Sequence record: OR757435
Length of the DNA: 64,000 nt
Source of the DNA: Escherichia phage vB-EcoP-XT32
Reading direction: 5' to 3' (one strand)
In this document: positions 36,327 to 63,928 of the stretch, in pieces
How the letters are laid out: the number at the start of each line of letters is the position of its first letter
Position numbering within the stretch: position 1 is the stretch's first letter
Translations under genes and position numbers: made by a program
Notes under the pieces: model-generated
The model's input: only the letters and a program-made list of their open reading frames with translations
Told to the model about the DNA's origin: nothing
Database searches by the model: none

Positions 36327-38171
36327 TTAGTGAGTTTGCATCCAATTCAATCCGATTTTACAATCAGAAGCTAGTTCACAGTGCATGTTTAGATATTCAC
36401 CTGCCTTCTTAACACAAGTCTCAGCTATCTTCTTCATTTTATCAACGTCGTTACGGTTGACAGACCACTGTGCTTCATCATGATAATCGATCACTTTGTT
36501 TCCTCTAATATTCTGCTGCTCTACCCATTTGTTTGTAAACAGAATAGAGTACTTCATGACAATGGCACCTGCACTCTGAAGTAGAGTATTCAGTGCTTTA
36601 TGCACCATAACCTTACCAGTAGCATCTCGTCTCATAGTTAACTTACGACCATCCACACCTTCCAAAGTGCCTGATTCCGCTCGGGCCTGAACTCTCTCCA
36701 GTACGATAGGAATACAAGGACATTCCGCTAAGAATCGCTCTCTAAGAATTTCACCTTCTTGAGCACCCCCTCCAACTATTTCCCCAATTTTAGCTGCTCC
36801 TGCTCCATACAGGAATCCATAGATGAAGGTTTTTGCATTGTCACGAGTTGGAAGCCCAGCGAGTTTCTGATTGTGGGAATGAATATCACCAGACAGCAGT
36901 ACATCTCTGTATGTATAGGCAGCTTCTAAGCCTTTCTCAGCTCTTAGATATTTAACTTTGTCATTTTCTAGTTTAGCCTCCTCCATCATATCAAGGCACT
37001 CTTTTACTAGATAATGTACCAGCATACGCAACTCTAACCCAGAACCATCATACCCTAAGAATACTTCTTTACCAGCGGGTATGTAATATTTGTAAGCACC
37101 TACAGGCTTATCTTTCTTCCCCGGCTTACCTTTCTCGTAAATTACGTTAGTACCTTTTCGTATATAACAACCATCAGGAACAACGTTAGTAATAACGAAA
37201 GGACGAGAGTGATCATCATCTGAGTTATAGTCAGACTCAAACAAACTGCGACACTCATGACCAAACAAACCACGGGAGGGAATATTAACCACGATACGAT
37301 GTTTGAATCGAAAAGTCGGCGTAGCGCAGCTGTTAGCTTCTGCCGAAAGTTTACCATCTTCGCGTTCCTTTGCTATTAGTCCACTGATAAGACCTAGCCT
37401 GTGAGCCGCTACAACGCGTCTCTTAAGCAAACTTCCGACACTTCCTAACTCACCCCCTAACCCTTCTTCAAGAGTCTCCTCGAGGTTTGTAGGAGCTGTA
37501 GGCCACTTGTTTGAGGTAGCTAGTGCTATCTTAATCTCGTCAAAAGTGATAGGTCTACGTCGGTTAGGATTTAAACCTAAACCAAATACATAAGCCTTCA
37601 TATAGTTCTTAGTCTTAAACCTAAAATGCTTTTCTAAGAACTTCCTAATATCAGCGTCAACCATCTCGGCTGTCTGCTTCTGTTTAGCATTACCTCGCAT
37701 CCAAGCTGAATACCATGCTTGGTATGTTCCATACTTTCGCATATCTTTCTTGATTTCAAAAGTATTCCAAGGTTTCTTTGATACGTTAAACTCTGGAGGA
37801 AGAAAACCCTCATCCATAAGGGCTTCTTTAACTCGTGCATCTTTCGATGGGTCAAAGTCTACGTATTCAACACAGGTGAATGCTCCACCAATGTCTTCTC
37901 TCTTAAGTCCAACTCTATCACAATAGGCTTGAGGCCATTTCTGTAAAGCTCCAGACTTCTTAAATGGTTTCATGTAAGTAGAGCCATCTAATCGCATCTT
38001 AGGTAAGAGAGGAATCAGTTCTTTGTCAATATTAACAATAATCTCTTTAAGGAGGTGAACATACCACCGAGCATTTCTTCGGTTGAAACTCACTCCGTGC
38101 TTCGCTTGCTTAGAGATTATATCAGCGACAGTCATCTCTGTCAAAAATGGGAGAGCGTCCGGGTTGCTCAC
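36327..38171 (-). CDS. DNA polymerase, family A, polymerase domain only
   Basis: 614 aa; motif A GYDGSGLELRMLVH, motif B RDNAKTFIYGFLYGAG, motif C YHDEAQ; no 3'-5' exonuclease motifs in this ORF. Confidence 0.85.
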   Translation of the reverse strand: MSNPDALPFLTEMTVADIISKQAKHGVSFNRRNARWYVHLLKEIIVNIDKELIPLLPKMRLDGSTYMKPFKKSGALQKWPQAYCDRVGLKREDIGGAFTCVEYVDFDPSKDARVKEALMDEGFLPPEFNVSKKPWNTFEIKKDMRKYGTYQAWYSAWMRGNAKQKQTAEMVDADIRKFLEKHFRFKTKNYMKAYVFGLGLNPNRRRPITFDEIKIALATSNKWPTAPTNLEETLEEGLGGELGSVGSLLKRRVVAAHRLGLISGLIAKEREDGKLSAEANSCATPTFRFKHRIVVNIPSRGLFGHECRSLFESDYNSDDDHSRPFVITNVVPDGCYIRKGTNVIYEKGKPGKKDKPVGAYKYYIPAGKEVFLGYDGSGLELRMLVHYLVKECLDMMEEAKLENDKVKYLRAEKGLEAAYTYRDVLLSGDIHSHNQKLAGLPTRDNAKTFIYGFLYGAGAAKIGEIVGGGAQEGEILRERFLAECPCIPIVLERVQARAESGTLEGVDGRKLTMRRDATGKVMVHKALNTLLQSAGAIVMKYSILFTNKWVEQQNIRGNKVIDYHDEAQWSVNRNDVDKMKKIAETCVKKAGEYLNMHCELASDCKIGLNWMQTH

Positions 38172-38187
38172 TTTATACTCCTTTAAA

Positions 38188-38604
38188 TTATTGGTAAAGT
38201 AAATCTGTAAATGCTTGGTTATCTTCTACCACATCTAACATGGTAGCTTCGTCACTATAAGCCCTAACCATCCCATTGATAACTGTACGAGGAGGAGGTG
38301 GTGCATGGTTAGCCCCAGCTTCACGAGGTTGCTCTCGTACTAAATGGGCCACAACCCTTTGGTTAGCGACTTCTTCTCTTTCTCGAATAGCTCTCTGGAT
38401 ATAAGCTAACTTCATACCCCAAACTTCTTCAAACTCTTGAGGGTGCTTATCACTGATAACTACATACTGACGATCAGGGATACCAGAGCGAATCTCTGAC
38501 AACAGTTCATGGAACAAATCAAGTTCGTGTTCAGTGAGATTCATTTCGATATCATCCCACTTGAGAACTAGGAATCTGTTTTGATGTCTAGCTGGTAATG
38601 GCAT
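38188..38604 (-). CDS. hypothetical protein
   Basis: 138-aa ORF following the polymerase gene. Confidence 0.45.
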   Translation of the reverse strand: MPLPARHQNRFLVLKWDDIEMNLTEHELDLFHELLSEIRSGIPDRQYVVISDKHPQEFEEVWGMKLAYIQRAIREREEVANQRVVAHLVREQPREAGANHAPPPPRTVINGMVRAYSDEATMLDVVEDNQAFTDLLYQ

Positions 38605-44360: not shown

Positions 44361-44856
44361 TNNNNNNNNNNNNNNNNNNNNNNNNNNNNNNNNNNNNNNN
44401 NNNNNNNNNNNNNNNNNNNNNNNNNNNNNNNNNNNNNNNNNNNNNNNNNNNNNNNNNNNNNNNNNNNNNNNNNNNNNNNNNNNNNNNNNNNNNNNNNNNN
44501 NNNNNNNNNNNNNNNNNNNNNNNNNNNNNNNNNNNNNNNNNNNNNNNNNNNNNNNNNNNNNNNNNNNNNNNNNNNNNNNNNNNNNNNNNNNNNNNNNNNN
44601 NNNNNNNNNNNNNNNNNNNNNNNNNNNNNNNNNNNNNNNNNNNNNNNNNNNNNNNNNNNNNNNNNNNNNNNNNNNNNNNNNNNNNNNNNNNNNNNNNNNN
44701 NNNNNNNNNNNNNNNNNNNNNNNNNNNNNNNNNNNNNNNNNNNNNNNNNNNNNNNNNNNNNNNNNNNNNNNNNNNNNNNNNNNNNNNNNNNNNNNNNNNN
44801 NNNNNNNNNNNNNNNNNNNNNNNNNNNNNNNNNNNNNNNNNNNNNNNNNNNNNNNN
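44361..44856. other. assembly gap (496 N)
   Basis: Run of N characters; sequence unknown. Confidence 0.99.
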
Positions 44857-44965
44857 GTTTCTTAGCAATACGAGCCTCTTTGCGAGTGTCAAACAATTTG
44901 ATGCTATCTTTTCTCGTGTGTTGATCAAGATCCCAAACAACACGAATCGCCCACATCTTTTTCAT
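44857..44965 (-). CDS. small protein of the paralogous family, 5' portion only (3' end lost in gap)
   Basis: MKKMWAIRVVWDLDQHTRKDSIKLFDTRKEARIAKK then runs into N. Confidence 0.4.
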
Positions 44966-45174
44966 TAGTAATGTACCTTTCCGCTGATATAAACACGACC
45001 AGAAGAATACTCCTTGGCCTTATGGATACTGATACTATTGACCACGTCACCAGTAAGCATAGTCTTTTTAAAATCTCGAGCCTGTTGACGAGTAGGAAGT
45101 GCAGTCATAGTCATACCACCTGATGCCCACTTAATCTTTGCTAACCAAAACTGTCTCATAGTGATTGGTCTCAT
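44965..45174 (-). CDS. small protein, paralogous family member
   Basis: 69 aa; ...LPTRQQARDFKKTML ... shares family pattern. Confidence 0.45.
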   Translation of the reverse strand: MRPITMRQFWLAKIKWASGGMTMTALPTRQQARDFKKTMLTGDVVNSISIHKAKEYSSGRVYISGKVHY

Positions 45175-45371
45175 TAATAATAAACCTTGCTGTTGGCAAA
45201 AAGAGCACCTTCGTTATTCACAATAGCTTTTCCTATTGTAACCTTATTGAGTCTAAAAGTAGACTTGTATTGGTTTTTGACCCTACGGGCGTGTTCTCGA
45301 GTGTTAATAAAATCTACAGCTACCAAGTCTCCAGTCGTATCATCATGTACACGAACAATCCACTTTTTCAT
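45174..45371 (-). CDS. small protein, paralogous family member
   Basis: 65 aa; MKKWIVRVHDD ... FINTREHARRVK ... Confidence 0.5.
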   Translation of the reverse strand: MKKWIVRVHDDTTGDLVAVDFINTREHARRVKNQYKSTFRLNKVTIGKAIVNNEGALFANSKVYY

Positions 45372-45574
45372 TTTACTAAACCCTTCATATAGTTATAAAG
45401 ATCGTTAGAGGCTTTACCCCATTCAAGGTGCTTCTTATCCATATAGCTCTTACAAGCTTCTTTACTGCTTTCGACGCATATATCAAATTGATGACATGCT
45501 CGACCAAATGTCATAGCTTTTAATTGAACCTCGGTAGTCAAACCTTTCAGTTCTTGGAACTCTTCTTCAGTCAT
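45368..45574 (-). CDS. hypothetical protein
   Basis: 68-aa ORF translationally coupled to neighbours. Confidence 0.4.
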   Translation of the reverse strand: MTEEEFQELKGLTTEVQLKAMTFGRACHQFDICVESSKEACKSYMDKKHLEWGKASNDLYNYMKGLVK

Positions 45575-46108
45575 TTACACACCTTTAGATGCAACTACAC
45601 CTTCAGAGTTATTATAACGCCCCTTCACTGCATAGGAATGTTCCCCTGCATGAGAGTGCTCAAACATCACCATCTGACCAACACGCATACCAGCACGAAC
45701 TCGTAAACTGTGGTGCTTGGTTACGTTATGGAATTCAAATGTCAGCTTACTGCTATTAAATCCTGCATCTGCCCAACCGGCGTGAAGGTGGTTCAAACCA
45801 CAACGAGCCATAGACGAACGCAGAACAAACAGACTTGAGATGTTATCTGGAAGATTAAACTCCTCCATGGAGTGAGCCAAGAAGAACTGACCCGGAGTGA
45901 TAACCAAACCCTCTTCAGGAATTTTTACTTCCTTCCACTGAAGATTTTCTTTCGCATCAATATCAACGATGCCATCAGCCTGTTCTTCAACAAGGATAGT
46001 ATCACCAATACGGATATCCACACTAGCAGCGTTAACATACTTATGCTCCGCATCCAGATAGCCATTATCAATTACATCGTGTAGTTCAACACTTCCTAGT
46101 AAACTCAT
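45575..46108 (-). CDS. dCTP deaminase (dUTPase superfamily)
   Basis: 177 aa; SVDIRIGDT, ITPGQFFLAHSMEEFNLP, LRSSMARCGLNHLHAGWADAGF, RAGMRVGQMVMF parallel E. coli Dcd. Confidence 0.7.
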   Translation of the reverse strand: MSLLGSVELHDVIDNGYLDAEHKYVNAASVDIRIGDTILVEEQADGIVDIDAKENLQWKEVKIPEEGLVITPGQFFLAHSMEEFNLPDNISSLFVLRSSMARCGLNHLHAGWADAGFNSSKLTFEFHNVTKHHSLRVRAGMRVGQMVMFEHSHAGEHSYAVKGRYNNSEGVVASKGV

Positions 46109-46117
46109 TTTTATTCC

Positions 46118-47194
46118 TTAGTTATTTGTTTCCATGTCAAAAGAAAATCCACGACCCGCTTCATCGGCAAACCGAACTGTACGGGTTTGAGGCTCTAATA
46201 CTTCAGGGTTGTTAGCAACAAACCGATCAGCGAGACTTTGGTTGACAGTTTCAGCGAGTTCCCCATGAGAGGGAATATTAAGATCGGCGAGATTATCAAC
46301 CACATCTTGGGCCACGTCTTCATCAGTCCATACAGCCCTAACAGGTGCGTTGAAACTCTGACCAGAGAACTGGTGACGGCTAACAGTCAAACCATTTGAT
46401 TGACCATTAGAACGTCTAGACAACCACTGCTCAAATGAATCGCCAGTAACACCAAGAGCTTCTTCAAAAGATGTTCTACGAGTAGAGCTTAGATTTCGTG
46501 CTTCGTTTGCTCGACGTCTTGCAGGGGCTACAAACACCCCTTCAACTGCATTGTGCCGATTAGGTTCATCTTCTCGACCAAGGAGATCTCCTCCTGTATT
46601 AGTTGTTAAGTTTGTCAACCCTTCAGACCAATATGCACGAATCTGGCTAGAGCCGTGAATGATTGACATTAACTGAATCTCTTCATAAGGGATTCCAAAG
46701 AATATACTCATGTCTCGGTTAACACAATATTGAGCACTTGTTGTATCCTCAATAAGAGAAACCTGACCTAATCCACTAACCAGATGACTAACTGGCTGAG
46801 GTGTAGGAAGGTATCGAGTTTGGGCCATATATTGATATGCAACAGATGGAGCTGAGAATCTTAACACTTGTGAATTAGGCCACTTTTTGTGAACGTATCT
46901 GATTTCACGACTAGAAACAACCACCGGGCAAGGAGCGGTCATAGCCAAATATCCATGAGGAGTCATGAATAGGTTTTCAAGGGTCATCGCACCACGACAC
47001 ATCATAGGAAAATTATCCAATACCTCTTCGATAGAAGTGGGATAATTAAACATGAATTGGATTCGAGTTCCCTGCCACTGAAATTCAATGATATCAGTGA
47101 ATGTTAATTGGGAAGTTCCTGTATATGGTTCATCTGTAGTTTCAGCAAGAAGAGATGAATACTCAATATCTTGTGACTCTAGCCACTCTTTCAC
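46118..47194 (-). CDS. hypothetical protein; possibly the body of a frameshifted tRNA nucleotidyltransferase
   Basis: GTG-initiated 358-aa ORF overlapping the stop of the NTase-head ORF; its upstream frame encodes ...IEYSSLLAETTDEPYTGTS resembling CCA-enzyme EYALARTER...GYTGFT. Confidence 0.45.
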   Translation of the reverse strand: MKEWLESQDIEYSSLLAETTDEPYTGTSQLTFTDIIEFQWQGTRIQFMFNYPTSIEEVLDNFPMMCRGAMTLENLFMTPHGYLAMTAPCPVVVSSREIRYVHKKWPNSQVLRFSAPSVAYQYMAQTRYLPTPQPVSHLVSGLGQVSLIEDTTSAQYCVNRDMSIFFGIPYEEIQLMSIIHGSSQIRAYWSEGLTNLTTNTGGDLLGREDEPNRHNAVEGVFVAPARRRANEARNLSSTRRTSFEEALGVTGDSFEQWLSRRSNGQSNGLTVSRHQFSGQSFNAPVRAVWTDEDVAQDVVDNLADLNIPSHGELAETVNQSLADRFVANNPEVLEPQTRTVRFADEAGRGFSFDMETNN

Positions 47195-47460
47195 ATTGCT
47201 TTCAATCTCACGCCCAAGAGCTTGCCACTGAAAGTGTTTTGAGTTCTTGGTGTCTGTCCTCTGACAATAAAGATATCGATGTCATGAGGTGCTATGTTAT
47301 TAAGAACAGCGTCACGAACAGCCCCACCAGTAATGATGGGACAGATACCATCTGGAATCAAGTTGTTGTTAATCAGCTGTTCAATGAAGTGACGACCGAC
47401 AGTGATATCAGGTTGTTGAGCAACCTTATCTTCAATTCGGTTAATCGGGATAACAATCAT
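47191..47460 (-). CDS. nucleotidyltransferase head domain (CCA-adding enzyme/poly(A) polymerase-like)
   Basis: ITGGAVRDAVLNNIAPHDIDIFIV matches GGxVRD ... DxD head-domain signature; start taken at ATG 47460. Confidence 0.55.
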   Translation of the reverse strand: MIVIPINRIEDKVAQQPDITVGRHFIEQLINNNLIPDGICPIITGGAVRDAVLNNIAPHDIDIFIVRGQTPRTQNTFSGKLLGVRLKAM

Positions 47461-47461
47461 T

Positions 47462-48016
47462 TTACATTTTCCAATATAATGAAGGTGGGTCGTAAGGGTC
47501 AAATCCTGTGAGTTCACACAAGTATTTATAAACCTTAACGGTTAAGTTAACGTCCTGTTCACAGTAAGTAAACATATCTTCAGTGAAAGCATCCCATGCT
47601 TCCTCTTGCTCACCGTAGTCTCCTTTAAGTTCCTCTAAGAACTCACCCCATTGCTTCAAACCATGACCTCTTGGGCCATGTCTAGGGTCACCTTTCGGAT
47701 ACTCAGGACTGTCACCAATACGGTCAGGTTTAAGATATCGACTAAGACACAAGGTGTCGAAGACGTTAAAACGATAGTCGATCAGATTGGGATACATCTT
47801 CTTCAGAGCACAAAGGTCGAAGTCAATAATATTATGACCTACGAGCACATCAGCTTCTGTAAGTTTACGAACCCCATCTTCAATTTGGTGAGGCCGATAG
47901 CCCCACCTTTCACCAGTTTCAACATCGAAGATGTAAATACACCATACTTTAGTTATGTCATCGTATAGTGCATTACTCTCGATATCAAAAGCAAACACTT
48001 TCTTTTTCTTTACCAC
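47462..48016 (-). CDS. 3'-5' exonuclease (DnaQ-like proofreading domain), separate gene
   Basis: 184 aa; Exo [10 protein letters not shown], Exo [12 protein letters not shown], Exo [12 protein letters not shown]. Confidence 0.8.
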
Positions 48017-49800
48017 GGTGAAGCTCCATCTGCTTGATTGACGAGAGAAGCTGCATCCTCTCCGTTAGTCAAAACGAATGGATTATCTTCATCAACTTCA
48101 AAGTCTTCCCTTTCTACAAGTCTACCGGTTTCGCTGATATACTTAGTATAGCAGACACCTGTCTGACCGTAGTTACGTTCTTTCAGTAATCGAATGACTG
48201 AGAGGTTCTTAGCTAAGCCGTCAGCTTGCTTGTCACGCTCAAAGCCAATGATACACTGACACCAACGCATAAGGGAACGAGAGCCAGTGAACTGTACTTC
48301 ACGTACCTGTCCACCTTCTTCGTGAGGAGCACCACCTGCCGGAGCATTAAGGTGAGATAGCACGAAAGCGGTAAAGTCTAACTCTTTACACATACCAGCA
48401 AGCTCTGAAGCAATCTTACTGATCTCAGTGTTAATCTCTGAAGGTGTTAAATGAGATACCAGAGCGGTAATGTTATCGAGGATGATGAACTTACACTGGT
48501 TTTCAACTACCCAGAAACGGATACACTGTTTAATGTCTTCCCATTCGTTCTGCCCGAAGTTGTCATACAAGAAGAATTTGTCTGCATAACGAAGTGCTTC
48601 ATTACGCAAATCCTCTTCATCATATTCAACATCTGGTCGGTGGAAAGGAATTGATGCTGACTTACCAGCGATGTTCTTAACAGACATGCCTACCTTCTCT
48701 TCCAAGAAGAAGCCACCTCCATTAAAACCATGCTCTAAGCACAGATGAGCAACCAGCTCGTGAGCAATTAGTGTTTTACCACTACCTACACCACCACCGA
48801 TGGCTACCACCTCTCCCCATCGAATACCGAAGGTCATCTCATTCAGAGTCTTCCACGGATATGGAATACCCCACTCCGCTTTCTTCAGAGCATCATCAAG
48901 GCAATCAAAGATTGTTACAGCACCAGCAGGAGATTCCCGCTTTGCTGAATACTTGAGAATGTTGAATAACTCTTGACCACGACCAGACAGAAGCATGTCA
49001 TTCGCATCCTTAATCTCTTTCTCCACACCGTTGTATGGGAAAGTTCCTTTAGGAATACGAGCAAACTTGACATGAGGGAATAAAGAACGACCTTTTGTTA
49101 AAGCTATCTCACCTGCATCGTCATTGTCCATGCAGAGCACAACCTCCTCAAAACCATTTACGAAGTCTCGATTACGAGACAACACAGAAGAGATTGAACC
49201 TGCACCGAACGGTAAAGAAACACATGCTGGCTTAATATTTGTTGCATTTGTAAAAGCTGTAAGGACATGGAAACCAGACATACAAGATAGCGGGTCTTCA
49301 AAAATAAACAGCTTCTTGTTGTACACATCTCCACGTTGAGCTTGTGCCATACCAAATAAGTCTGCTTCTTTCACACTGCCAACGTAATAAAACTTCTTAC
49401 TATCTAGCAGCTTAACCTCGTAACCAACAATGTTTCCATCACGTTCACGAGGAAAGAAGTAGCTGTCTGGAGTCTGACCATCAGTCTGACTTAGACCAAT
49501 GCGACACTCAAAACGCTCTGATACAGCTTTAGGGATTAAACGTCGAGTAAGTTCACCCTGAGGAAGCTCTAAGCAATCATCTAAGACTTCTCTTAACTCT
49601 TCAGGGGATAACTCTTTCTTCTCATTTGGAGTAGGTGTAGTGCCCTTTTCGAACACTTCGTAATTCCCACAACGGTTACAACTTCCCCACTCCTCACCTG
49701 TCTCTTCGTTACGGAAGAGAATCATGTGGTTGTGGGTTTTATCACGACCATGAGAGATACATTCCTTACAACCTGTGTCTCCCAAAATGATCTTTGACAT
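48010..49800 (-). CDS. primase-helicase (T7 gp4-like)
   Basis: 596 aa; N-terminal zinc ribbon (CKEC ... CNRC), TOPRIM-like middle, C-terminal DnaB-like helicase with Walker [10 protein letters not shown]. Confidence 0.85.
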
Positions 49801-49826
49801 GCTCTTCCTCCTTGGAATCCTTGAGC

Positions 49827-50030
49827 TTAGTAGAACGAACGAATTTCATCCCACACTTGTTCCTGTTCTTTCCTATAAAAAGAAAGTTGGGTCTTGAACA
49901 TCTCCACTGATGATTCAAAGTTTTTAGATTGTGCAGCTTCAACGAAACGTTCATGTCGGTTGATTTTGCACCGTAGCATTAAATACTTGGCTTCAAGTCT
50001 CCGAAGAGCCTGTCTTTTCTCAAGATTCAC
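49827..50030 (-). CDS. hypothetical protein
   Basis: 67-aa helical ORF. Confidence 0.4.
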   Translation of the reverse strand: MNLEKRQALRRLEAKYLMLRCKINRHERFVEAAQSKNFESSVEMFKTQLSFYRKEQEQVWDEIRSFY

Positions 50031-52780: not shown

Positions 52781-54811
52781 TTAACCTCTATTCAATGAAC
52801 ATTTAGGAGAATTACAATAAACTTGATTCATAGAACCAAGCGTACAACTTTCAGCATCGCGCCACGGAATCTGCTTAAAACACTCTGAGCAGTAGCCGAG
52901 GGTTGACCACATGGCTTTGGTGAAGTCAGTGCTTCGGTTTCCGTCGAAGCTGACAACAGTTTTGCGGAGAGCTGTTCGTGATTCAGGAAACACACCTGCT
53001 TTCTCAGCAGGTTCCTCCTTTTTTGGCTTAGTTGAGATTGCAAAAATACTGTTGCTACGTTTCTCAACATAAGCATCAACAACATCCTCCAGAGTGATGC
53101 CTGTCTGTTTCGCTGAGGAAGGTAATACAGTCATACGACCGATCATATCTTCAGTTACACGTAAAGCAAACTCAGGACGACGGGCGTTTGTTGTATCTGT
53201 TGCTTTAATCCAGACATAACCATCTTTGATCGTAGCATTAGATACCTTCTTCTTTACATCTACAGCGCAGACTTTACAGATATCTTCACCACGAAGACGA
53301 CTAAGTTCTTCATCGAACTCATTCTCCGTTTTAACTTCACCGCAGATTTCACAAACACCAATAGGAGTTTCCTCCTCTTCTTCATCTTTAGGTTTAGTCA
53401 AACCTTCCAGACATTCAGGGTGCCAGTAGCATTGATATGCGAAGACTGCTTTAGGTGCATCCTTCCAATCAATGTGTTTGTCACAACCACCGCAATCACC
53501 ATGAGAGTGTGCTTCCCAGAATTTACGAGTGATAGTAACGCCATTCTTGTTGACGAAACTATCATTCATATCAAAAGGGATATCATCATCGAAGTCAGCA
53601 GTAGTAGACTCAGGCTCCTTTTTCTCCAGAGATGGGTCAACAAAACGACCTGCTGTGATTACTAAACGAACCATAGCATTAACTTCGGAGATGCAGGATA
53701 CTGTCCCACGGTAAACGATTTTAGGGTCTTTCAGGGCATCCTGATAAGCCTTAATGTCTACGTTATGAACATCGCCTTCAATATACTCTTGAGACTTCTC
53801 ATCGTAGATATAACCAATCATCTTACCACGAGAAGGAACAGCACCAGCTGTTGCATAAGGAACAAACTCATGTGGTGTGATTTCCACAGTCATGTCGCGG
53901 CGAATGTCAATGTTTCGATCGCTTGCGATTTTGTTTTGACTTACCACTGCGTTTCTTCGACGAACGTCTGCCGCTGTCACTCCCGGCTTCGTGTCGTAAG
54001 GATTGCTTGTACTGCTTTTTGAGGAACTTTGATAATTGCTTTGGCTGTAGTTGTTCGAGTAGTAATTGCCCCAACGATTGATTACCGTAAAAACCGGAAG
54101 CTCGTGGGCGACCTCTTCAACTAGAGTCATACTGTTGTTTGACATATCAAAGATATATTCTGTACCAACTTTACATTCAAAGTGCTCATCAATTCGGTTT
54201 TTGTGAGACTTAGAACGCTTCAGAATCCACATCAACATGTCTTCTTCAGAAGCACCAAACCAATCTCTGTTACAACGTGCGAGATGGAAAGGACGCTCTT
54301 CATTACGGATGATATGAAGGCGGTTATCAGAAGCATCATGCCAGATTAAGGTGAAAGCACCATCCAGCTTTTGAATAGTCTCTGCTGCACCAATAGTGTT
54401 AATAGAGTGGCAGATGTTCTCACTGTCTACCTCGAAGTTTTTGCTGTCAGGTAACAGATCTTGGTCCATCAAGGTTCCATTATGAACCAGCGTGATGTTA
54501 CCATGTTGGAAAGGATGGGCGTTCTTGGCGTTAACTGCACCTTTCGTTGCATGACGGCTGTGACCAACAATCCATGAAGGTGCTACAGTGTAAGCTGTTT
54601 CACCAGTGGTGTGCTTCTTGTACTCATCTTGAAGGATGAATGCGAAAGAAGGAAGGGCTTCTTTATAGGTGAAGACTTCCTTAGTGCTCTTACGCTGACC
54701 AAAGATACCAGAGGAGTGTTGTCCTCGGAATACTCCAGCATAAAAGAGTTGGTTAAATACGTCTAAATCAGTGTTTGACAGATTACCGCCAGCTAATACG
54801 ATGCCACAAAT
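52781..54811 (-). CDS. class-II (Ntn) glutamine amidotransferase fused to C-terminal Cys-cluster domain; probable non-ATG (ATT) start
   Basis: Track ORF starts at internal TTG 54472; frame stays open upstream to a TAG, encoding (I)CGIVLAGG ... FRGQHSSGIFG ... NAKNAHPF ... LVHNGTL typical of PurF/GlmS/AsnB-type GATase; AGGTGG 8 nt before ATT-TGT. Confidence 0.7.
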   Translation of the reverse strand: MCGIVLAGGNLSNTDLDVFNQLFYAGVFRGQHSSGIFGQRKSTKEVFTYKEALPSFAFILQDEYKKHTTGETAYTVAPSWIVGHSRHATKGAVNAKNAHPFQHGNITLVHNGTLMDQDLLPDSKNFEVDSENICHSINTIGAAETIQKLDGAFTLIWHDASDNRLHIIRNEERPFHLARCNRDWFGASEEDMLMWILKRSKSHKNRIDEHFECKVGTEYIFDMSNNSMTLVEEVAHELPVFTVINRWGNYYSNNYSQSNYQSSSKSSTSNPYDTKPGVTAADVRRRNAVVSQNKIASDRNIDIRRDMTVEITPHEFVPYATAGAVPSRGKMIGYIYDEKSQEYIEGDVHNVDIKAYQDALKDPKIVYRGTVSCISEVNAMVRLVITAGRFVDPSLEKKEPESTTADFDDDIPFDMNDSFVNKNGVTITRKFWEAHSHGDCGGCDKHIDWKDAPKAVFAYQCYWHPECLEGLTKPKDEEEEETPIGVCEICGEVKTENEFDEELSRLRGEDICKVCAVDVKKKVSNATIKDGYVWIKATDTTNARRPEFALRVTEDMIGRMTVLPSSAKQTGITLEDVVDAYVEKRSNSIFAISTKPKKEEPAEKAGVFPESRTALRKTVVSFDGNRSTDFTKAMWSTLGYCSECFKQIPWRDAESCTLGSMNQVYCNSPKCSLNRG

Positions 54812-63847: not shown

Positions 63848-63928
63848 TGGCGTCCCCACTAGGACTCGAACCTAAAATGGATTTNGATTTTTAGAAGAAA
63901 ACTGTTATATCCTTTTAACTATAGGGAC
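63848..63928 (-). tRNA. tRNA, probably tRNA-Arg (anticodon UCU), with encoded CCA
   Basis: 7-bp acceptor stem GTCCCTA/TGGGGAC, D-arm GTTA-AAAGGATA-TAAC, anticodon loop CTTCTAA, T-arm TTAGG-TTCGAGT-CCTAG, 3' GCCA; unusually long variable region containing one N. Confidence 0.6.

Follow-up and report, generated by a model that had tools for sequence, protein, structure and literature searches.

A 13-bp deletion splits a conserved kuravirus nucleotidyltransferase gene between two reading frames in the sequence of Escherichia phage vB-EcoP-XT32

The DNA analysed here, referred to as the window, is a 64,000-nt stretch from the genome of Escherichia phage vB-EcoP-XT32 (XT32; OR757435, a record of 76,591 bp). 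Its minus strand carries a conserved block of genes in the order primase/helicase, exonuclease subunit, nucleotidyltransferase and dCTP deaminase (Table 1). The exonuclease subunit and the dCTP deaminase lie on either side of the nucleotidyltransferase, which is the kuravirus-type position, and the exonuclease-subunit stop is 1 nt before the nucleotidyltransferase ATG. The same order surrounds a homologue at just 26% identity (on an 85.7-kb contig), and the gene is found in the replication block wherever its neighbourhood is readable. A promoter and terminator scan of 45400-50000 gave counts close to the shuffle expectation and placed nothing for separate expression of the downstream ORF. The initial annotation had mentioned a phage tRNA with an encoded CCA, and this was found in the form of a tRNA-Arg(TCT) whose sequence ends ...GGGGACGCCA, with the 3' end ...GGGGACG-CCA.

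Table 1. Features at and around the split nucleotidyltransferase gene of XT32 (positions in the window)
Feature	Position	Strand	Basis or identity
DNA primase/helicase, first gene of the conserved block	48010..49800	-	annotations of relatives
DNA polymerase 3'-5' exonuclease subunit, upstream neighbour	47462..48016	-	Pfam DNA_pol_A_exo1 (E 1.2e-8) and annotations of relatives
N-terminal fragment ORF, 89 aa	47194..47460	-	WPK42006.1
Two-frame open overlap, 91 nt	47191..47281	-	upstream frame and -1 frame both open
Deletion junction, 13 nt missing	~47228..47231	-	alignment with relatives
Rest of the nucleotidyltransferase gene, -1 frame, 370 homologous codons	46118..47230	-	WPK42005.1
dCTP deaminase, downstream neighbour	45575..46108	-	Pfam DCD (E 3.5e-34) and annotations of relatives
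tRNA-Arg(TCT), genomically encoded 3' CCA	63848-63928	-	ARAGORN

The nucleotidyltransferase of XT32 is distributed over two frames. The upstream ORF has 89 codons, from the ATG at 47460 to a final sense codon at 47194, followed by TGA (47193-47191). Its product, identical to WPK42006.1, reads ...PIITGGAVRDAVLNNIAPHDIDIFIVRGQTPRTQNTF and then SGKLLGVRLKAM; that is, 77 native residues are followed by 12 out-of-frame ones. The GGxVRD...DxD signature that had been noticed in this ORF is present as GGAVRD (residues 45-50) and DID (60-62), which gives the motif A residues G45, G46, R49 and D50 together with D60/D62. The 370-codon remainder runs in the -1 frame from CAG-TGG (QWQALGRE...) to a stop at 46120-46118. 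This part of the gene specifies the head domain's second half (E99, D127, Q139, P156, E190, Y193, K196/K197), along with a disordered region and a small element at the C-terminus. Within it, an ORF of 358 aa opens with a GTG at 47194 and extends to 46118; its N-terminus is MKEWLESQDIEYSSLLAETTDEPYTGTS and its product is 100% identical to WPK42005.1. The ORF listing therefore bears out the coordinates given in the initial annotation, 89 and 358 codons on the minus strand. The claim that no stop interrupts the -1 frame at the junction is correct as well: this downstream frame is open from 47281 on, and the two frames share 91 nt (47281-47191). Both proteins were deposited as 'hypothetical protein', and the XT32 annotation has two separate CDSs with no comment on a split.

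Are these two genes or one? The two fragments match a single 457-position phage family profile, phrog_12715, the N-terminal one at positions 1-77 (E 1e-43) and the C-terminal one at positions 94-457 (E 8e-193). The split is therefore a real difference from the relatives and no chance pattern of ORFs, in support of the earlier suggestion of a single nucleotidyltransferase gene broken by a frameshift and restorable by a -1 shift. The initial annotation had also listed a pseudogene and a sequencing indel among its options. Taken together, the XT32 fragments cover the family profile over its full length; the single ORF of ~430-456 codons is missing, so that the locus is a disrupted allele of the phrog_12715 family. 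The closest Megablast match to the region is phage 172-1 (95.6% identity), a member of the genus Kuravirus, the phiEco32-like E. coli podophages. In 172-1, SU10, NJ01, XT73 and phiEco32 the gene is one CDS of 1314-1371 nt (RefSeq name 'nucleotidyltransferase'), and the annotated relatives have one gene of 432-456 aa, the phiEco32 gp73 family. Mass spectrometry has picked up the intact SU10 orthologue, at its expected mass of 50.9 kDa (PMC4281155).

What broke the gene is evident from an alignment with 172-1, NJ01, SU10, XT73 and phiEco32, which has one 13-column gap, private to XT32. Here XT32 reads AACACTTT-CA-GTGGCAAG (ACTTTCA|GTGGCAAG), and XT73 reads AACACTTT-CA-TCCGTCATGAA-CA-GTGGCAAG at the same site (ACTTT-CA-...). 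A repeated CA dinucleotide brackets the missing 13 nt, which leaves the exact breakpoint ambiguous inside CA; the lost bases are probably TCCGTCATGAACA or a close variant. The codons removed are those of residues 78-81/82 (I-R-H-E in XT73), and the frame shifts by -1. Flanking microhomology of this kind is what a slippage or microhomology deletion usually leaves behind. The initial annotation had placed the lesion at 47230-47240, which was right, and had suspected an indel in the A/T runs there, which was wrong: the nearest homopolymer is an AAAA a few bases upstream, the lesion is outside any run, and comparison with each of the relatives examined makes it a 13-nt deletion. The split in XT32 is thus an ordinary strain-specific frameshift allele, or else an assembly error, in which a 13-bp deletion has disrupted a member of a phage gene family already known and annotated.

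How exclusive is this allele to XT32? A 121-nt query across the junction matched 69 phage records; in each of the 60 relatives listed among them the matched stretch is 13 nt longer than the query, and in XT73 this gap is the only difference across the 121 nt tested (90.3%, 121/134). In a collection of 5.8 billion sequences the family forms 44 protein clusters, mostly of 392-456 aa, whose full-length members all contain the residues deleted in XT32; the sole 358-aa entry is XT32 itself. Some short family proteins (96-161, 283 and 89 aa) were considered as independent disruptions and set aside, as they look like contig-end truncations or chimeras; those covering the deletion site all retain the residues lost in XT32. 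Neither IMG/VR nor the JGI metagenome contigs contain the junction allele, IMG/VR being a weak test in which a positive-control pattern retrieved one kuravirus contig only, because it holds very few kuraviruses. A search of the contig collection found no assembled contig encoding the 358-aa product, and a literature search returned no paper that mentions XT32.

Could the overlap be a recoding site, as the initial annotation offered among its options? A programmed or usefully leaky -1 frameshift (or transcriptional slippage) would produce a full-length protein of ~447 aa from two frames that are indeed both open over 91 nt. Exactly at the junction there is a T_TTC tetramer (47233-47230) on which tRNA-Phe could re-pair, giving a near-native ...QNTF-QWQALG... 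product with a loop 4-5 residues shorter, which is within the family range, as the loop length varies by more than 10 residues. However, the region 47281-47191 has no X_XXY_YYZ heptamer, just the tetramers A_AAC, T_TTC and G_GGC. The RNA of the 80 nt downstream folds with a minimum free energy of -15.5 kcal/mol and a z of +0.57 (142 of 200 shuffles fold at least as well), and Rfam has no frameshift element or other match at the overlap. The nearest SD-like sequence, AGAGGA, lies roughly 25 nt upstream as read from the sequence, and a stimulator is lacking. The two-frame layout occurs in none of the 60 listed records (of 69), all of which are in frame and need no shift, nor in the intact 392-456-aa cluster proteins. 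The ACTTTCA context is already present in relatives that are in frame, so nothing there evolved for slippage. With no heptamer, no downstream structure and no conservation of the split, recoding is rejected; we consider it extremely unlikely.

A gene that is split but still works is another way to read the two ORFs. The 89-aa fragment and a product re-initiated at the GTG at 47194 would then reassemble into an active enzyme, and the arrangement looks suitable for it, as the upstream stop overlaps the downstream GTG (GTGA), a classic coupling arrangement, and the downstream frame is intact. But this GTG is an ordinary Val94 codon (N-V-K-E-W), found in all five intact relatives aligned as DNA, and since the codon existed beforehand the GTGA overlap is a by-product of the shift. 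The sequence upstream of GTG 47194 (GGCGTGAGATTGAAAGCAAT) has no good Shine-Dalgarno. Residues 78-93 would be missing from the reassembled protein, that is half of helix 80-100 in the catalytic domain, and the N-terminal fragment would bring 12 foreign residues with it. None of the relatives (60 listed of the 69 records; 44 clusters) is organised in this way, and reassembly is very unlikely.

Another observation on the downstream part is that 370 intact codons and a GTGA overlap would also be expected if it were still made, which speaks against loss of function.

Is the deletion then in the phage, or only in its record? The gene could be intact in the phage itself, with 13 nt lost in assembly, in polishing or through a minority variant of the lysate. 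This would fit an allele that is unique against 60 of 60 listed relatives (69 matching records) and absent from the other collections searched, in a gene that shows no decay in the rest of its length and is otherwise universally conserved, under purifying selection and in kept synteny even at 26% identity. Leaving the deleted residues aside, the repaired XT32 protein has private differences from 37 orthologues in only three adjacent columns; these adjoin an in-frame indel in the variable tail, and we read them as an alignment effect. The dN/dS between XT32 and its relatives is 0.10-0.19 (codons 1-290), and intact genes compared with each other give the same range. The lack of private changes together with an ordinary dN/dS means that the lesion is either very young or not real. 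Against an artefact stand the nature and the setting of the lesion. A loss of 13 nt outside a homopolymer (context ACTTTCA/GTGG, nearest run AAAA) is atypical of read-level error, and the CA/CA microhomology is the trace expected of a real replication-slippage deletion. Wherever the 64-kb window aligns to 172-1, no other coding indel was found that is private, uncompensated and of a length not divisible by three, so the assembly is not generally ridden with indels. A second candidate frameshift (1 nt, at 54649) turned out to be peculiar to 172-1, the other listed relatives agreeing with the window. An assembly or consensus artefact is on balance unlikely, though it keeps some weight, and the deletion is most likely real.

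The reading that we favour, and hold to be fairly probable, is that the lesion is a genuine recent mutation and is not programmed. A 13-bp deletion between two CA dinucleotides would have taken out codons from a variable surface loop that directly follows the DxD strand, with a -1 shift of the frame. Ribosomes starting at the normal ATG would then stop after 77 native and 12 foreign residues, leaving a fragment that keeps GG/RD and DxD and has lost every conserved residue in the catalytic domain's second half. The sequenced stock would accordingly carry a recent loss-of-function mutation, and the 370 downstream codons would still be open because the lesion is recent.

What does the intact gene encode? 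Its link to known nucleotidyltransferases is concentrated in motif A. The Pfam PolyA_pol head family (PF01743) scores 20.4 bits with intact XT73 and 19.1 bits with the XT32 fragment (E 0.0017), both below the cut-off of 23, and matches 22 of 34 family members weakly (best E 2.5e-4). The family profile retrieved 31 clusters from 1.84 billion representative proteins, with no canonical CCA-adding enzyme among them; the conserved core of this 31-cluster family is the first 210-300 residues, and the tails are variable. The GGxVRD and DxD residues (motif A G45, G46, R49 and D50, plus D60 and D62) are invariant in 32 of 32 members, and the invariant positions of the wider family also include F64, I128 and Q139. 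E/D99, D/E127, P156, D/E190, Y193 and K197 are conserved too. E/D99, D/E127, Q139, Y193 and K197 are all downstream of the break. When the family profile is compared with the PDB, or with E. coli Cca by hhalign, nothing beyond the 23-27 residues of motif A aligns (23 columns for Cca). A PDB sequence search with the narrow family profile gave only noise, and NCBIfam and PADLOC gave no match.

Class II CCA-adding enzymes have further motifs, namely motif B, RRD, for ribose recognition, and motif D, EDxxR, for base templating. Within the first 300 residues, RRD occurs in one of 32 family members and EDxxR likewise in one of 32. The earlier proposal that the downstream ORF resembles the next conserved block or body of CCA enzymes is not supported: the match is limited to motif A (23-27 residues), neither RRD nor EDxxR is there, and residues 290-409 are predicted to be disordered. 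The EYSSLLAETTDEPYTGTS stretch lies between helix 80-100 and the next strand, in a segment that is poorly conserved and in part modelled with low confidence. The combined length of about 440 aa had also been taken as matching a full enzyme; the figure is correct, but its agreement with a full CCA enzyme is a coincidence. A literature search found no study of the activity of the kuravirus protein and none linking Kuravirus to CCA-adding enzymes. The gp73 family is probably not a bona fide CCA-adding enzyme; it shares motif A and the head fold only, and the label 'class II CCA-adding enzyme' on some family records overstates the sequence support.

Structure prediction agrees with this division of the protein. 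AlphaFold2 with the 37 kuravirus sequences only gave a pLDDT of 32.5, and the model used here comes from a rerun with remote homologues. In this model, residues 1-290 are confident (most 10-residue blocks above 90), residues 290-409 are predicted to be disordered (pLDDT below 50), and a helix and a hairpin of modest confidence are at the C-terminus. The confident part contains the head-domain fold, a pol beta-like sheet with catalytic carboxylates. The DxD strand (61-67) is predicted to be followed by a loop (68-79) and by helix 80-100. The deletion falls in this loop, and no other part of the domain is as variable or differs as much in length. At its N-terminus the gp73 orthologue, as modelled, carries a two-metal nucleotidyltransferase domain of the class II type; the protein is folded to ~290 and continues with a disordered stretch and a short C-terminal element. 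The gp73 proteins form a genuine family of phage enzymes, conserved and expressed, whose catalytic head is of the class II type.

From these residues we infer that the intact enzyme would transfer a nucleotidyl group from an NTP to a nucleic-acid 3'-OH by a two-metal mechanism, in which D60 and D62 together with a third acidic residue, E99 or D127, would be the metal ligands. The templating motifs are absent, and the tRNA-binding body appears to be absent too; hence the specificity of the gp73-type enzyme, judging from sequence and model, probably differs from CCA addition. What is left of this activity in XT32? The 89-aa product keeps GG/RD and DxD and loses E99, D127, Q139 and everything beyond, and any re-initiated product is without the metal ligands D60 and D62. 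Because the catalytic residues are divided between the two pieces, neither should be active alone.

Provided that the deletion is genuine, XT32 can be propagated on its laboratory host without the enzyme, and is a natural knockout of a gene that kuraviruses and their more distant relatives otherwise conserve, express and keep under purifying selection. It would then be a cheap starting point towards the function of the gp73-type enzyme. A more far-reaching proposal is that the gp73 type is a lineage-restricted offshoot of class II that lacks the tRNA-holding body and the templating motifs and works on a substrate different from the tRNA CCA end (repairing or tailing 3' ends in counter-defence, for instance, or acting on a replication intermediate), with XT32 as a natural knockout that would show the enzyme to be conditionally dispensable. 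As a whole this is a doubtful proposal; were it true, comparing XT32 with the near-isogenic XT73 on diverse hosts could reveal the function. For the databases, WPK42006.1 and WPK42005.1 merit merging and a flag as one disrupted nucleotidyltransferase gene. The practical consequences are otherwise small, and there is no hint of a new recoding mechanism.

How does the XT32 locus compare with known systems? Its nearest counterparts are phiEco32 gp73 and the other Kuravirus nucleotidyltransferases (phrog_12715; YP_001671818, YP_009208240, YP_009152925), to which it is orthologous, with 85-94% nucleotide identity to five orthologues. The start codon and the neighbours, exonuclease subunit upstream and dCTP deaminase downstream, are common to all of them. 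The XT32 copy differs in lacking 13 nt and in having two ORFs of 89 and 358 aa, whereas the phiEco32-gp73 orthologues have one ORF of 432-456 aa. Programmed -1 sites, such as those of dnaX and of the tail-assembly chaperone G/GT genes, have in common with XT32 two overlapping open frames offset by -1. Unlike them, XT32 has no slippery heptamer, no stimulator and no conservation, and its layout was made by a deletion in one genome.

At the level of the protein, the comparison is with the class II enzymes (CCA-adding, A-adding and poly(A) polymerase I; PF01743), in which the head is followed by an all-helical neck, body and tail; in the gp73 type the sequence after ~290 is predicted to be disordered, and only 147-164 residues align to class II chains of 344-415 residues. 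A further comparison is with the stand-alone 'poly(A) polymerase head' proteins of T7-like and other podophages (phrog_1614; for example Aeromonas phage phiAS7 H6UK10, Providencia phage PS3, Pectobacterium phage PP47 gp28). The phrog_1614 profile matches residues 35-155 (E 2.6e-8), and the kuravirus orthologue aside, the best matches among viral models are such stand-alone proteins of ~200 aa from T7-like phages. BFVD models of the phrog_1614 type (186-215 aa) align with the kuravirus model at E 6e-8 to 3e-6 and a target-normalised TM of 0.54-0.59; with the profile match, this indicates a shared core fold of ~200 aa. The T7-like 'poly(A) polymerase head' genes also lie in a replication block, and PMC7693777 describes no functional work on them. 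Compared with the phrog_1614 proteins, the kuravirus protein has twice the length and an identity of only 14-18%; it differs from them by a family-specific folded extension (~160-290), ~120 aa of predicted disorder and a small element at the C-terminus.

Which lineage does the nucleotidyltransferase gene (window 46118-47460) of vB-EcoP-XT32 come from? The answer depends on the part considered. The 5' part is closest to XT73, with which it is identical over 121 nt around the junction, the site of the 13-nt deletion, while for the 3' part the nearest relatives are 172-1 and NJ01 (dS 0.10). The gene is thus a mosaic, which indicates intragenic recombination among kuraviruses.

How much of the protein is the enzyme itself? 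A distant phage contig from Logan (L006, DRR240551, 85,670 bp) carries a 274-aa homologue within a kept gene block, with thioredoxin and ThyX genes coming after it. This shows that the core of the nucleotidyltransferase takes up about 270 aa, the long tail being an addition of the kuraviruses. The disordered region contains in-frame indels of 9-57 nt, and the extreme end of the protein also differs: the sequences in protein clusters P0016 and P0023 (phage pEC-N1203-2Af.1) terminate in ...EPQVGGELDQLLNSQNIR where others have ...EPQTRTVRFADEAGRGISFDMETNN, so that the enzyme's small C-terminal element has been swapped for another in at least some kuraviruses. The replacement is seen in these two clusters; query coverage is likewise just 95% in five more (P0024, P0025, P0028, P0029 and P0034).

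Location of the features discussed
Feature	Coordinates	Strand	Context
3'-5' exonuclease of DNA polymerase, separate 184-aa gene	window 47462-48016	-	adjoins nucleotidyltransferase
DNA polymerase gene (172-1 gp066)	window 36327-38200 region		about 9 kb from exonuclease gene
Array of small paralogues in tandem, each 65-69 aa	window 44965-45371	-	downstream of dCTP deaminase
Tandem array, counterpart	L001 4243-4858
DnaB-like primase/helicase, exonuclease subunit, 274-aa nucleotidyltransferase, dCTP deaminase	L006 267-3988

The small paralogues downstream of dCTP deaminase share 24-33% identity between copies and a common motif, W..G..TR..AR..K...I...V.Y. Part of this array is overlapped by a single run of 495 N (window 44362-44856), because of which ORFs called across it are meaningless; one further N lies within the tRNA-Arg gene, at 63885. 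Window 54649 was ruled out as a frame-altering feature of the window, the extra T being confined to 172-1: that phage reads CCTTTC at NC_028903.1 position 65902, whereas the window has CCTTC, the form common to all other kuraviruses among the matches listed. The T, probably a sequencing error or private mutation, appears to extend the annotated 'L-glutamine-D-fructose-6-phosphate aminotransferase' CDS of 172-1 at its N terminus.

The DNA polymerase in the window is split, with exonuclease and polymerase encoded as separate genes, an arrangement that is known and already present in the RefSeq annotation of kuraviruses.
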